DNA of 21,062 bases from a virus, in UHGV virus genome UHGV-1684449, one strand, 5' to 3'. Under the pieces are notes generated by a model. That model was not told where the DNA came from and searched no databases. It saw nothing but the letters and a program-made list of their open reading frames with translations. Both the position numbers and the translations under genes were made by a program. Numbering within the stretch: position 1 is the first letter of the stretch; every line of letters begins with the position of its first letter. Below, in pieces: positions 12,892-17,616 of the stretch.

Positions 12892-13761
12892 ATGAACTTT
12901 ACCAAACTGACTGACCACCTGAAACTTGCCACCGATCGACTCATTGGATTTAAGCCAGAACCATATGAGTTGCATGAAGGTCATGGTGTAGCTACTGAAA
13001 GTATTTACAAGATGGTCGATCAGTTTCATGAACTCTTCCAGCATCCGAGACGCGTTATGCCGACACCAGAGCTGCTTCGTCTCCGTGCAAGCCTGATTCA
13101 TGAAGAAGCTGTAGTGGAAGGTATTCCAGCCGCAATGAATGGGGATATTGAGCAACTGCTGGATGCAATGGCCGACTTTTTATACGTTGGTGTTGGTACG
13201 ATGGTCGCCATCAAAGGTGGTATTTCTACCGGCATGACCTATTACACGCAGGAACAGAGCATTGATCGCTTTATGCAGACAATTTTTGTGCCTGGTAACA
13301 CTGTTTTCGATGATATGGCAATGCCATTTCAGGAAGCTCGTGAGGCGTCATGTATGCTCGAAGAGCTGGCAGATAAACTTGAGAACAAGACTGTTAAGGA
13401 TTCTGAGCTGATTCAGGAACTGCGCCGTGTAATGAACAAAATCTATGTGGCGTGCATGATGACCTATCGACTGGCTGATTTCCTCGGTATCAATGTCGTC
13501 GAGCTGGTTGGCGAAATTCATCGGTCCAACATGACAAAATTATGGCCTGCAGATGCCGAAGAGCGTCGCCATGCTGTGGCCAACTGCAAATACGACTCTT
13601 CTGACCTGGGATTTCGCCATGCTGATGGCACCGATAAGATGATCGGTTTTCGAATTTCCGATGGAAAGATTCTGAAGTCTCCAACCTATAGTGATGTCGA
13701 TTTATCCTCCTTTGTTGAGCAAGCTAAAGCCTCAGCAATGTACGGAATGATCAAAAAATAA
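12892..13761 (+). CDS. Putative MazG-like nucleoside triphosphate pyrophosphohydrolase
   Basis: HEEAVVEGI...DIEQLLDAMADFLYV is an E-x2-E ... E-x2-D pattern typical of all-alpha MazG/HisE-type pyrophosphatases. It lies within the nucleotide-metabolism cluster. Assigned from pattern only. Confidence 0.45.
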   Translation: MNFTKLTDHLKLATDRLIGFKPEPYELHEGHGVATESIYKMVDQFHELFQHPRRVMPTPELLRLRASLIHEEAVVEGIPAAMNGDIEQLLDAMADFLYVGVGTMVAIKGGISTGMTYYTQEQSIDRFMQTIFVPGNTVFDDMAMPFQEAREASCMLEELADKLENKTVKDSELIQELRRVMNKIYVACMMTYRLADFLGINVVELVGEIHRSNMTKLWPADAEERRHAVANCKYDSSDLGFRHADGTDKMIGFRISDGKILKSPTYSDVDLSSFVEQAKASAMYGMIKK

Positions 13762-13856: not shown

Positions 13857-13932
13857 TCTATCTGGCCTTGTTCCCTCAATAAATGTAAACTCACTTAATT
13901 AATAAGTGGTTACTTATCTTTGTGAGGTTTTT

Positions 13933-15036
13933 GTGTCACTCCTTTTGAATCGTGAGCATACGAACGGTCAGGTAACAAACGCATCGTATGCAAAAGTTAT
14001 TGAGACGGTGCTTAAAAGCGGCGTGCAGGCTGATGATCGCACAGGCACTGGTACTTTAAGCACCTGCTACGTTCCCTCTTACTACATGCTTACTGGTGGG
14101 ACTGTGCCGCTTATTTCTGGAAAGGCGGTAAATCTTAAGCCACTGCTTGTCGAACTTGAGTGGTATCTGAAAGGCACGGGCAACATCCAATTTCTCAAGG
14201 ATAACGGCGTTAAGATTTGGGATGCATGGGCCGATGAGAATGGCGATTTGGGGCCGGTTTACGGTAAGCAGTGGCGTCGATGGGAAGATACCCGCATCGT
14301 GAGCCATAGTGAATATCTGAGCAAGATCGATACTTTCCGTGAACGCGGGTACAAAGTCGAGGGATACCTGGGTATCAGTGAAGATCGCGTAGTGCTGTCC
14401 CGTGAAATCGATCAGCTACAGCGTATTGTCGATACACTGCGCACGAACCCCACCGATCGTCGTATCATGCTTAACGCATGGAACGTAGGCGAGCTTGAGG
14501 ATATGAAACTGCCACCTTGCCACTTTGTCTTCTCTTTGTGGAGTCGTGAGCTTGATTTTGAAACCCGTTTAACGATGGCAACTGACATTGGTCTTCAACA
14601 CAGTCGCCTCGGTTATGAGTCTATCTACACCAAGATGCTATACGATCTGGAGATGGACGGCAGTGTTACTGAAACTGAACTGGATGAACTTGGAATCCCC
14701 AAACGCATCCTCAACTCCTGCCTCGTACAGCGTAGCGTAGACACTTTTGTTGGTATGCCATTCAATATTGCTGGCTATGGCATTCTCACTCATTTTCTCG
14801 CGAAGATTACGGGTCACATGGCCGGTGCATTTGTACATTTTGGCTTTGACGTGCATTTGTACAACAACCACATGGAAGGTGTGTGTGAGCTAATGAAACG
14901 ACAGGCTCCAGAGCATTCAGATCCGGTCGTTATTTTCCCTCATGAATGGTCTGAGCTGGATGATTTCAAATGGGACGATATTCTGATTCTTGGCTATGAC
15001 CCTCTACCGTGGATCAAGGTTCCAGTGGCGGTGTGA
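13933..15036 (+). CDS. thyA: Thymidylate synthase (ThyA family) with internal insertions
   Basis: Conserved ThyA motifs DRTGTGT, GPVYGKQWRRW, DRRIMLNAWNVGELEDMKLPPCH (catalytic Cys), QRSVD...PFNIAGY and the C-terminal GYDP...IKVPVAV. The track ORF begins at GTG 13906; I prefer the in-frame GTG at 13933 because GAGG at 13924-13927 gives a better ribosome-binding site. The start is uncertain. Confidence 0.85.
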   Translation: MSLLLNREHTNGQVTNASYAKVIETVLKSGVQADDRTGTGTLSTCYVPSYYMLTGGTVPLISGKAVNLKPLLVELEWYLKGTGNIQFLKDNGVKIWDAWADENGDLGPVYGKQWRRWEDTRIVSHSEYLSKIDTFRERGYKVEGYLGISEDRVVLSREIDQLQRIVDTLRTNPTDRRIMLNAWNVGELEDMKLPPCHFVFSLWSRELDFETRLTMATDIGLQHSRLGYESIYTKMLYDLEMDGSVTETELDELGIPKRILNSCLVQRSVDTFVGMPFNIAGYGILTHFLAKITGHMAGAFVHFGFDVHLYNNHMEGVCELMKRQAPEHSDPVVIFPHEWSELDDFKWDDILILGYDPLPWIKVPVAV

Positions 15037-15037
15037 T

Positions 15038-15451
15038 ATGGCAAGAGGTATGTATGTCTTATGCGAAATTGAAGGTGTGCTGGCAAATACCAGCCATCGT
15101 AAATCTGTATCTGACGCGGATGCAGGCCAGCTCATTGCCGGTGATGAACTCATTTTCCCCACCAGCCGTATGTTGCGTGGTTTTGCTCGCTCAGGGGCTG
15201 AAGTGGTGCTTATCAGTAGCCGCTCTGAAACTCTTGAAGCGCCCACTAAACGATGGCTGAAAGATTTTGGCGTTGATTACGACTGGCTTCATCTCGTACC
15301 GAATGGCACCAGTTATGAGAAGCATATTAAGCGCACATTAGCGGAGCATAAAGGCGATCTGCTTATCGCTGCGCTGGTGCACGATCCTCGACTCCGTGCC
15401 GCTTTAGCTGACTCTCATCATAGACCGGTCATCTATGAGGTGAGCAAATGA
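15038..15451 (+). CDS. Hypothetical protein, possibly a HAD-like phosphatase fold (137 aa)
   Basis: ORF between the thymidylate synthase and dihydrofolate reductase genes. YVLCEIEGVL resembles HAD motif I (hhhhDxDGxL) but with Glu at both Asp positions; VVLISSRS and GDLLIAALVHD could be motifs II and IV. Start trimmed to the first ATG after the thyA stop. Confidence 0.4.
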   Translation: MARGMYVLCEIEGVLANTSHRKSVSDADAGQLIAGDELIFPTSRMLRGFARSGAEVVLISSRSETLEAPTKRWLKDFGVDYDWLHLVPNGTSYEKHIKRTLAEHKGDLLIAALVHDPRLRAALADSHHRPVIYEVSK

Positions 15452-15924
15452 AGATGATAGCTGCTGTTGGCCGTAACTATGAGATCGGCATAGCGAACGA
15501 ACTGCCCTGGCGTTGTTCTACCGATCTGAAGCTATTTAAGAGACTCACCAAAAACGCCACTGTCGTTATGGGGCGTAAAACGATGGAAAGTCTCAAACGC
15601 CCTCTTCCAGAGCGTCATAACCTCGTTTTGACGCGCTCTCATGGCTTTGTACCAAATGGATTCTACCCTGCTGGTGTGGATGATGTGTTGCGATTACCAG
15701 AGCCTGTGTGGGTGATTGGCGGGGAACAAATTTACTCGCTATTCATGCCGCATGTTGAAGAGATTTGGCTCTCCCACATCGGCGTTGATGTGCCAAACGC
15801 CGATGCATTCTTCCCGGCAAGCATGATGCGTAATTTAGGCTTTGTGCCTGTTGAAACAGTTTTTACCCAACGAGCCAGCGAGGAAGAGCCTGGCTTTTCG
15901 CAGATCGTATACAGAAGGTCGTAA
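15448..15924 (+). CDS. folA: Dihydrofolate reductase
   Basis: 158 aa. MIAAVGRNYEIGIANELPW, VVMGRKTMESLKRPLPERHNLVLTR and VWVIGGEQIY match the DHFR family pattern (E. coli FolA: MISLIAALA...MPW, [34 protein letters not shown]). GAGGTG ribosome-binding site; start overlaps the upstream stop. Confidence 0.85.
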   Translation: MKMIAAVGRNYEIGIANELPWRCSTDLKLFKRLTKNATVVMGRKTMESLKRPLPERHNLVLTRSHGFVPNGFYPAGVDDVLRLPEPVWVIGGEQIYSLFMPHVEEIWLSHIGVDVPNADAFFPASMMRNLGFVPVETVFTQRASEEEPGFSQIVYRRS

Positions 15925-16568
15925 TGGATTACCGGATTGGGATCACTGGTGCTCAGGGCAGTGGGAAAACAACCCTGGCAAAATATATCGACAAACATTA
16001 CGGAATCCCTTACGTGGATGCTGGTGTCGGAAGTTTGATGAGCCGACTCGGTGTTCGAGTAGGTGAGTCTATGCCTCTATATGAGCGGCTTCAGATTCAA
16101 ATGGAAATAGCAAAGCATATAGAGCTACTTACGCGTGGTGTTGAAGGCTTTGTTATCGATCGCACACCTGCTGATGTTATGGCCTACACGTTGGATTTGG
16201 TCGGCCATACCAATGAAGATCGATGTATTGAGTTAGCCCTCGATATCGAAAAGTTTTGCCACAAAACTGCTATTTCAAACTTTAACGCCATTGCTGGCCT
16301 ACGCCCGGGGGTCGCTCTCTCAGAGCGAGATTACTTGCGGTCACAACGAGCATCATTAGACCGTCTGTATGTCGCTCGTATTGATGCGTTGATGTGCGGG
16401 GAACTGACAAAAATTCACCTGCATCCGCAAAGGGGGGATCTGCAAACCTTCGTCGTTTCCAACCGATATCGCACGGTTGAAGCAAGAGCCAGATCAGTGA
16501 TGAGAATGCTAGATAACGCTGTAGAAAAGATAGAAAACCGGTTCTGTGGCCGAGTGACCGTTCATTAG
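15924..16568 (+). CDS. P-loop NTPase, putative nucleotide or nucleoside kinase
   Basis: Walker A GITGAQGSGKTT at the N-terminus; size and genomic context are consistent with a dNMP kinase-like enzyme. Translationally coupled to the upstream gene (TAATG). Specific function not established. Confidence 0.4.
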   Translation: MDYRIGITGAQGSGKTTLAKYIDKHYGIPYVDAGVGSLMSRLGVRVGESMPLYERLQIQMEIAKHIELLTRGVEGFVIDRTPADVMAYTLDLVGHTNEDRCIELALDIEKFCHKTAISNFNAIAGLRPGVALSERDYLRSQRASLDRLYVARIDALMCGELTKIHLHPQRGDLQTFVVSNRYRTVEARARSVMRMLDNAVEKIENRFCGRVTVH

Positions 16569-16629: not shown

Positions 16630-17049
16630 ATGTTTAGTGAAATGTTGCTTGAAGATGAACTGGATCGGAAAACAACAGAGGCTTTGATTCGTGTAGCGGA
16701 CGAACATTCCCGGTCGCTTATGAGCGATCGAGAGGCTCGCCTGGCTATTCGTGCCATATTCGAAACTGCGCAGGGGCTTGTTGGCGCACAAGTAGGTGAA
16801 GCCATTAACATCGCCATGTCTCAGTTCAGTGAAGACAGTAAAAAGCCTCTGTTTCCTATGCATTTGATGCTGGCTGGTGGCACGGTGCTTTATATCTCTG
16901 TTTGTCTGGATAGCAACCAAATCAATATTCTCAACACTGCGTCAGGTAAGTGGAAAGATCCGATTGTCTGTGAAACCAGTGAAGAAACTTTGAAAAAAGC
17001 GGCTCAATTTGTACGTAGCGCACTACTTAAGGGCGCTAAGAAGTTGTAA
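16630..17049 (+). CDS. Hypothetical protein (139 aa)
   Basis: ORF with an AAGGA ribosome-binding site. No family recognised. Confidence 0.5.
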   Translation: MFSEMLLEDELDRKTTEALIRVADEHSRSLMSDREARLAIRAIFETAQGLVGAQVGEAINIAMSQFSEDSKKPLFPMHLMLAGGTVLYISVCLDSNQINILNTASGKWKDPIVCETSEETLKKAAQFVRSALLKGAKKL

Positions 17050-17058
17050 GGAGTTCTG

Positions 17059-17616
17059 ATGACAACGATTGTTGCAGGCATCGATATCGAGTCTACGGGA
17101 CTGGATTTCCTTGCTGGTCATAAAATTATTGAAATCGCAATTACCCGCTATGAACTGGAGACACAGAGACATATTGATAGTCTGGAGATGCGTTTTAACC
17201 CTCGCAGAAACATAGATCCGAAAGCTCAAGCCGTTCATGGCATTTCATTAGAACAGCTCGCAGCTGAACCTTTGTTGTCAAATCATGCCAGCGAAATTGG
17301 CGCTTATATGGGGGCATGTAGTGCGTGGATTGCTCATAACGGCGAAGCGTTTGATATACCATTTATTCGACACGAGTTTTCAGGGTATGGAGTAAGACTG
17401 CCAGACGTTCCCGTTATAGATACTATGTTATCGGGATTGTGGGCCACAGAAGACGGTAAACGTCCTCGCCTTGAAGAATTGGCCTTCTCTCTTGGCTTTA
17501 TATACGATCATGCCAAAGCACATAGTGCCTTATATGACACAAACTTAATGATGCAATGCTTCTTTAAGGCACGTAATAAATACGGATTTTTTAAATTACC
17601 CTCTGAAATTGTGTAA
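17059..17616 (+). CDS. DnaQ-like 3'-5' exonuclease (DEDDh family)
   Basis: Exo I GIDIESTG, Exo II HNGEAFDIPF and Exo III HSALYDT motifs. AAGGAG ribosome-binding site. Confidence 0.75.
   Translation: MTTIVAGIDIESTGLDFLAGHKIIEIAITRYELETQRHIDSLEMRFNPRRNIDPKAQAVHGISLEQLAAEPLLSNHASEIGAYMGACSAWIAHNGEAFDIPFIRHEFSGYGVRLPDVPVIDTMLSGLWATEDGKRPRLEELAFSLGFIYDHAKAHSALYDTNLMMQCFFKARNKYGFFKLPSEIV

Follow-up and report, generated by a model that had tools for sequence, protein, structure and literature searches.

A Pnkp-type HAD-like protein with Glu at the nucleophile position, encoded between thyA and folA in SSU5-like phage-plasmids, is a candidate pseudo-phosphatase

In the C-terminal DxDxT 3'-phosphatase domain of T4 Pnkp (1ltq, 2ia5, 5uj0), D165 is the covalent nucleophile that forms an aspartyl-phosphate and D167 is the general acid/base, with S211 and K258 contacting the phosphate and a Mg2+ ion held by D165, D278 and the carbonyl of D167 (PMC3592404). 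The D165N mutant of this enzyme is inactive, and the D167N mutant sequesters an RNA 3'-phosphate in the phosphatase site (PMC3592404). Our literature searches returned nothing useful on the roles of T4 R176, R213 and D254 or on HAD pseudophosphatases with Glu. Pnkp1 of Capnocytophaga gingivalis (4xrp, 4xru), part of the Pnkp1-Rnl-Hen1 RNA repair complex, has CDLDGTL, SGR and DD motifs together with an N-terminal kinase domain and is encoded in an RNA-repair operon. Phages also encode stand-alone Pnkp-like phosphatases (phrog_415/phrog_505; PF25109) of about 140-160 aa, and these keep the DxDGT motif, the motif III Lys and a motif IV [DE]D. HAD-like folds can also be used for binding or storage and not for catalysis, as in plant vegetative storage proteins (VSP) and the LNS2 domain of Nir2/PITPNM; soybean VSP is without the nucleophilic Asp. 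The Nir2 LNS2 domain recognises phosphatidic acid (PMC12582312).

The protein considered here is encoded in a window of 21,062 nucleotides (UHGV virus genome UHGV-1684449) that represents an E. coli phage-plasmid of the SSU5-like type. Over 2.6 kb around the gene, identity is 99.5% with Escherichia phages CMS-2020a and PhiR41_1 and 78.5% with Salmonella phage SSU5. The reading frame (Table 1) runs from an ATG at 15038 to a TGA stop at 15449-15451 and gives a product of 137 aa, which is 87% identical to the SSU5 orthologue and 73% identical to that of a Klebsiella phage, and which matches phrog_5387, a family with no assigned function, over its full length (E = 5.5e-90). A longer in-frame TTG start at 14990 was rejected because it lies inside thyA and because homologues keep the N-terminus MA[RK]GM, a conservation that supports the start at 15038. 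The ATG follows the thyA stop (TGA, 15034-15036) by 1 nt, and the stop shares a 4-nt ATGA with the folA start, an overlap that the annotations of SSU5 and the Klebsiella phage also show; the final codons of the HAD-like gene contain GAGGTG, the Shine-Dalgarno sequence of folA. The first-pass annotation had described translational coupling to the DHFR gene, which this overlap bears out, and the 1-nt spacing shows that the coupling reaches thyA upstream as well.

Table 1. Features of the HAD-like gene and its neighbours (positions in the window)
Feature	Position	Strand	Basis or remark
CDS, 137-aa HAD-like protein	15038..15451	+	ORF and sequence; orthologue of SSU5_082; phrog_5387
Degenerate motif I YVLCEIEGVL, residues 6-15	15053..15082	+	Aligned to Pnkp1 VICDLDGTL and T4 Pnkp FDVDGTL
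R21, equivalent to T4 Pnkp R176, kept	15098..15100	+	Profile alignment; at least 90% conserved in alignments A1 and A2
R44-M-L-R-G48 clade-specific motif, helix 40-51	15167..15181	+	R44 and G48 unchanged in every operon-linked orthologue, also in the Ala, Thr, Gly and Asp variants
Motif II VVLISSRS, residues 56-63	15203..15226	+	S60 = T4 S211, R62 = T4 R213; strand 55-63
Shortened loop and helix start PNGTSYEKHIKR	15299..15334	+	Site where the motif III Lys (T4 K258) and D254 would fall
Motif IV GDLLIAALVHD, residues 106-116	15353..15385	+	H115 = T4 D277, D116 = T4 D278; after strand 108-114
C-terminal clade motif S-H-H-R-P (consensus HPH[KR]P), before last strand	15413..15427	+	P130 invariant and [KR]129 conserved in all operon-linked orthologues
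ATGA overlap of HAD-like stop and folA start	15448..15451	+	Sequence
MazG-like pyrophosphohydrolase, 289 aa	12892..13761	+	
thyA, maximal ORF, true start uncertain	13906..15036	+	PF00303, E = 3.3e-79
folA, dfrA51-like DHFR	15448..15924	+	PF00186, E = 2.9e-34; 89% identity to SSU5 DHFR
AAA_28 P-loop kinase-like gene	15924..16568	+	PF13521, E = 2e-9; phrog_2107 'thymidylate kinase', E = 2.9e-10
139-aa protein, phrog_5373, function not assigned	16630..17049	+	
DnaQ-like exonuclease	17059..17616		

Sequence comparison placed the protein among the polynucleotide 3'-phosphatases. A single-sequence search of the PDB found Pnkp1 (4xrp) at E = 1.9e-5 with VLCEIEGVL opposite VICDLDGTL, and a profile (A1) made from Glu-bearing homologues alone found it again at E = 8.8e-6 with CEIEG opposite CDLDG. 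When searched against 1.84 billion proteins, the same Glu-only profile reached proteins with a canonical DxDGT (E = 3e-11 to 1e-8); of these, the stand-alone phage phosphatases, which resemble our protein in size and phage origin, are the nearest relatives, with E about 1e-10 to 1e-11 for P0049 and P0050, for example. The protein also matches phrog_415, 'polynucleotide kinase' (E = 1e-8), and PF25109, HAD_PNKP, the latter at E = 6.3e-5 and 23.6 bits, under the gathering cutoff of 27.6 bits; some orthologues (P0004, P0011, P0045) carry a precomputed match to PF25109. The HAD resemblance of the 137-aa protein is thus beyond chance. Neither NCBIfam nor PADLOC gave a match, so the protein is neither a named equivalog nor a known defence component.

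An AF2 model computed from the A1 alignment (pLDDT 90.7, pTM 0.87) has strands 5-10, 55-63, 83-87, 108-114 and 131-134 alternating with helices, which is the arrangement of a Rossmannoid core. Foldseek matched this model to many HAD phosphatases in the PDB with a probability of 1.00, ranking Pnkp1 (4xru/4xrp) first and the T4 Pnkp phosphatase domain (5uj0, 1ltq, 2ia5) next, at TMq 0.77-0.82, followed at lower rank by plant VSP (4fyp), class C acid phosphatases and the Nir2 LNS2 domain (9jzp/9jtz). The LNS2 and VSP matches are distant (11-18% identity), eukaryotic and associated with other ligands. Viral Pnkp and phosphatase proteins rank top in a fold search of BFVD. Pnkp1 is the best match by both sequence and fold (20-23% identity); the T4 domain shares the same single-domain HAD fold, with TMq up to 0.82, at about 14% identity. 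As modelled, therefore, the protein is a genuine single-domain HAD fold of the Pnkp-type polynucleotide 3'-phosphatase branch. An NT5C-like 5'-nucleotidase identity was rejected, all significant sequence and fold matches belonging to the Pnkp and class B/C acid phosphatase branch, and this refines the earlier idea of a nucleotide phosphatase: the family is the Pnkp-type branch, not the 5'-nucleotidases.

The first-pass annotation had read YVLCEIEGVL (residues 6-15), VVLISSRS (56-63) and GDLLIAALVHD (106-116) as a degenerate HAD motif I and possible motifs II and IV, and had set fold prediction as the test of this reading. The three segments are present exactly as quoted, the predicted fold has the Rossmannoid HAD core, and motif I stands column for column with the DxDGT of the solved Pnkp phosphatase domains. 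In the model E10 lies at the end of strand 5-10, S60 within strand 55-63 and H115-D116 right after strand 108-114, which is where HAD motifs I, II and IV are expected. Residue equivalences were taken from a profile alignment to T4 Pnkp that is colinear over the whole domain, and here too the assignments held, motif II falling on T4 S211, motif IV on D277/D278, and the two Glu residues of motif I, E10 (gaa, 15065-15067) and E12 (gaa, 15071-15073), on D165 and D167. V14 (15077-15079) corresponds to T169. The DxDx(T/V) signature, with its Asp nucleophile and the Asp two residues on, accordingly reads E10-I-E12-G-V14, with Glu at both acidic positions; Val at the fifth motif position is tolerated in active DxDx(T/V) enzymes.

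The remaining motifs are altered to different degrees. The Ser/Thr at the end of strand 2 (motif II) is present as S60 and mostly kept in the clade described below, with Cys, Asp and Ala as exceptions, and the equivalents of T4 R176, D187 (here D36), S211 and R213 are all kept. At motif III, a gap of eight columns relative to canonical relatives takes out the RPxGDxRxDxxxK loop that holds T4 D254 and K258, and hmmalign places '------' at this loop in every Glu-clade member. The motif III Lys/Arg is absent and the nearby K95 and K98 are unconserved among orthologues; a structural substitute for this Lys may exist. In place of the acidic pair of motif IV (DD or GDxxxD) our protein has H115-D116, elsewhere in the Glu clade the position reads CS, RT, TT, RS or AS, and D116 is confined to the closest relatives. 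The orthologue of Klebsiella phage ST13-OXA48phi12.3 (73% identity) has EIEDVL at motif I and ALVSS at motif IV. Among the six catalytic elements, one, the Ser, is conventionally present. Compared with T4 Pnkp, the HAD-like protein thus has D165 and D167 changed to Glu, D277 changed to His, the D254/K258 loop deleted and no fused kinase, and judged from these residues its phosphatase activity has most likely been lost; these motif losses argue against a Mg2+-dependent 3'-phosphatase activity proceeding through an aspartyl-phosphate. The stand-alone phage phosphatases, which retain DxDGT, the motif III Lys and [DE]D, differ from it in the same respects.

To place these changes in the family, 181 collected proteins were aligned to one HMM. 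Of these, 143 (P0039 and above) are 50%-identity cluster representatives from the 1.84-billion-protein search, beyond the first homologue set, and their nucleophile position is Asp in 131, Glu in six, and Ala, Thr and Gly in one each, with three unaligned. The non-Asp proteins all fall in one clade, whose hallmarks are HPH[KR]P at the C-terminus and R-[ML]-L-x-G in helix 40-51. Canonical DxDGT relatives read x-G-[LVF] where the clade has HPH[KR]P, and R44 and G48 are unconserved among them. In an NJ tree the DID-bearing P0045 is basal in the clade, and above it branch two sister groups, an Ala/Thr/Gly clade (P0043, P0044, P0047) and the Glu clade. P0045 keeps SGR and the motif III Lys, and its motif IV is already E-P. 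Within the Glu clade, E10 is invariant down to about 34-37% identity (P0039, P0040), and E/D12, R21, D36, S60 and R62 are largely kept. The ancestral motif of the Glu clade is E-x-D: most of the clade has Asp at residue 12, and the second Glu is a late change, with E-x-E restricted to the SSU5/E. coli/Klebsiella subclade.

The invariance of E10, taken together with the retention of E/D12, R21, D36, S60 and R62, argues against a purely inert pocket and indicates that it is still under selection in the Glu clade, a pattern that would suit ligand binding or else a residual or altered catalysis. One alternative to consider is consequently an active hydrolase or phosphotransferase of altered chemistry, in which Glu10 would either be the nucleophile, forming a glutamyl-phosphate, or activate water as a general base, and the substrate would be a nucleotide (e.g., a 3'- or 5'-dNMP) or a 3'-phosphate end. 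Besides the invariance of E10 in all Glu-clade members across deep divergence, this reading can call on the acidic residue retained at position 12, on the kept R21, D36, S60 and R62, and on the location of the gene among nucleotide-metabolism enzymes. An Asp-to-Glu change at the nucleophile inactivates other HAD enzymes, however, and this counts against it. It also has to contend with Ala, Thr or Gly at position 10 in syntenic orthologues, with the deletion of the motif III Lys loop, with the absence of the Mg2+-ligand Asp (T4 D278) from the 73%-identity Klebsiella orthologue and most Glu-clade members, and with the fact that even D165N abolishes the activity of T4 Pnkp (PMC3592404). We regard such an enzyme as quite unlikely. 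As E10 never varies within the Glu clade, there is room for a further proposal, in which Glu10 would be no relic but the residue that does the work in a re-engineered HAD pocket without Mg2+ site or motif III Lys, serving either non-canonical catalysis (through a glutamyl-phosphate or by direct water attack) or as a nucleotide sensor, e.g., for dUMP or dTMP, that tunes the ThyA/DHFR/kinase module; we would call this one very unlikely.

The genomic setting of the gene is conserved. In SSU5-like phage-plasmids the operon has the order nrdA-nrdB-mazG-thyA-X-folA-AAA_28 kinase-like-Y-DnaQ-like exo, where X is the HAD-like gene and NrdA and NrdB are encoded upstream of it. The same operon slot is occupied in SSU5, in Raoultella-type and other Glu-clade elements, in the Ala, Thr and Gly variants (the Thr variant lying on a 99.9-kb NCBI contig) and in the Asp-bearing basal member. 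The gene adjoins thyA in all related loci, and synteny is kept down to 28% identity; in a basal relative (L008/L009) the order is ThyA-HAD-AAA_28, without folA. As single-protein queries against viral contigs, P0043 and P0045 gave no match. Since the Glu, Ala, Thr, Gly and Asp variants are positional orthologues, the function they share cannot need an acyl-phosphate nucleophile.

Loss of the catalytic motifs and variation of the nucleophile position between lineages might also be expected of a functionless remnant, that is, a decaying phosphatase gene still carried in the operon. The selection data contradict this reading. Relative to SSU5, dN/dS is 0.068 for the HAD-like gene, on par with 0.061 for the neighbouring DHFR gene and next to 0.035 for NrdA, the ratio being approximate because dS is high (1.3). 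Across five more distant loci the amino-acid identity of the HAD-like protein drops in step with that of MazG, DHFR and AAA_28. The open reading frame is intact and full length in all lineages examined, and the persistence of synteny to 28% identity and the confident, compact AF2 model speak against decay as well. The gene is under purifying selection, the direction being clear even though the ratio is approximate, and is not decaying; a functionless remnant is hardly credible.

The relationship to Pnkp raises another alternative, namely that the HAD-like protein forms a split, Pnkp-like end-healing pair with the AAA_28 protein, to which it contributes the phosphatase-like half, and that it recognises or sequesters 3'-phosphate termini of broken RNA or DNA instead of serving dNTP synthesis. 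Its closest solved and viral relatives are indeed polynucleotide kinase-phosphatases, and fusion to a P-loop kinase is frequent among canonical relatives, in the order HAD-kinase (P0078, P0135, P0137) or kinase-HAD (P0054, P0067). The P-loop AAA_28 gene lies one gene downstream of the HAD-like gene, and directly after it in L008/L009, and the sequestration of an RNA 3'-phosphate by T4 D167N provides a precedent for such a role (PMC3592404). The AAA_28 protein is weakly similar to NMP kinases; against it as a Pnkp-like partner, phmmer detected no significant similarity to the kinase domains of the collected Pnkp-like proteins, and its weak matches are to (d)NMP, adenylate and thymidylate kinases, those in the PDB being weak P-loop matches to adenylate, cytidylate and dephospho-CoA kinases. 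In addition, no RNA ligase is seen in the operon, and the gene to which the HAD-like gene is invariably tied is thyA. A split end-healing pair appears unlikely to us.

We lean towards the view that the protein is a non-catalytic, Pnkp-type HAD pseudo-phosphatase, which the dTMP/dNTP module of the phage-plasmid has kept for a binding or accessory role. The aspartyl-phosphate machinery has been dismantled, with Glu at the nucleophile position (Ala, Thr or Gly in the sister lineages), the motif III Lys loop deleted and the Mg2+-ligand Asp of motif IV unconserved, so that conventional phosphatase work has most likely been lost. The protein would more probably work by binding, in the manner of an accessory or adaptor subunit whose production keeps pace with that of ThyA, DHFR and the kinase-like protein, any of which would be a candidate partner, and its remnant pocket (E10, E/D12, R21, D36, S60, R62) may hold a phosphorylated nucleotide or a 3'-phosphate end. 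By analogy, a ligand-binding pocket of this kind would fit with the 3'-phosphate sequestration of T4 D167N and the phosphatidic-acid sensing of Nir2 LNS2. The first-pass annotation had offered two possible functions, and they fare differently: a dead HAD fold used for binding is favoured by the Ala, Thr and Gly orthologues, the deleted motif III and the unconserved motif IV Asp, and a nucleotide phosphatase with unusual chemistry is disfavoured.

These results bear on how such genes are labelled. GenBank MK422451 labels an orthologue 'polynucleotide kinase/phosphatase, C-terminal phosphatase domain of T4 PNKP', and in phage Cyrano 'Polynucleotide kinase' is listed under the matching stretch; SSU5 and PHROGs have the protein as hypothetical or unknown. 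The similarity to Pnkp phosphatases has thus already been noticed by annotators. In the searches we made, no description was found of how this clade has systematically lost the catalytic set, of the Glu/Ala/Thr/Gly series at the nucleophile position or of the fixed thyA-X-(folA)-AAA_28 linkage. Three of the four tests for HAD catalytic motifs came out negative and the Pfam score fell under its cutoff, so the protein should not be filed as a phosphatase, and the labels 'polynucleotide kinase' and 'polynucleotide kinase/phosphatase' on such genes probably overstate what it can do. If the reading as a pseudo-phosphatase is true, its presence in a thyA-folA-kinase module would be a clear case from bacterial viruses of a HAD enzyme turned non-catalytic accessory, and it could be a clue to how a phage dTMP-synthesis complex is physically organised or regulated. 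The interest would be greater still if Glu10 were catalytic or if the protein regulated the ThyA/DHFR module. Phage-plasmids of the SSU5-like type are widespread among clinical Enterobacteriaceae, and in them the HAD-like gene and the DHFR gene are linked in translation. The DHFR of SSU5 is dfrA51, which confers trimethoprim resistance in E. coli, and resistance has been demonstrated for both dfrA50 and dfrA51 (PMC12217456). The Klebsiella orthologue of the DHFR, QBP27508.1 (dfrA50), is likewise encoded directly after the HAD-like gene.

Several further observations were made on the neighbouring genes. The ThyA ORF is 376 aa long compared with the 266 positions of the Pfam model, and its match is split into 27-213 and 268-376, which implies about 100 aa of insertions; every related locus has this conserved long form (350-376 aa). 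Inspection by eye shows the PCH cysteine and PFN asparagine motifs of ThyA, and the GTG start at 13906 adds nine residues relative to SSU5. On one related metagenomic contig (L005, 4945-6028) thyA is called as two overlapping ORFs of 124 and 251 aa, which suggests a frameshift or an assembly error. The AAA_28 gene begins on the last base of the folA stop. Its product shows weak likeness to (d)CMP, adenylate and thymidylate kinases but belongs to no curated family, and record labels for it vary among 'AAA family ATPase', 'ABC transporter ATP-binding protein' and hypothetical. The 139-aa ORF at 16630-17049 had no Pfam, NCBIfam or PADLOC match; it is found between the AAA_28 gene and the DnaQ-like exonuclease gene in every related locus and is fast-evolving, with 71% identity to SSU5. 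The MazG-like protein has a clear PRA-PH stretch at 42-106 and a second, marginal MazG-like stretch at 160-216 (whole-protein E = 0.1), which hints at a tandem MazG architecture for the product of 12892-13761.
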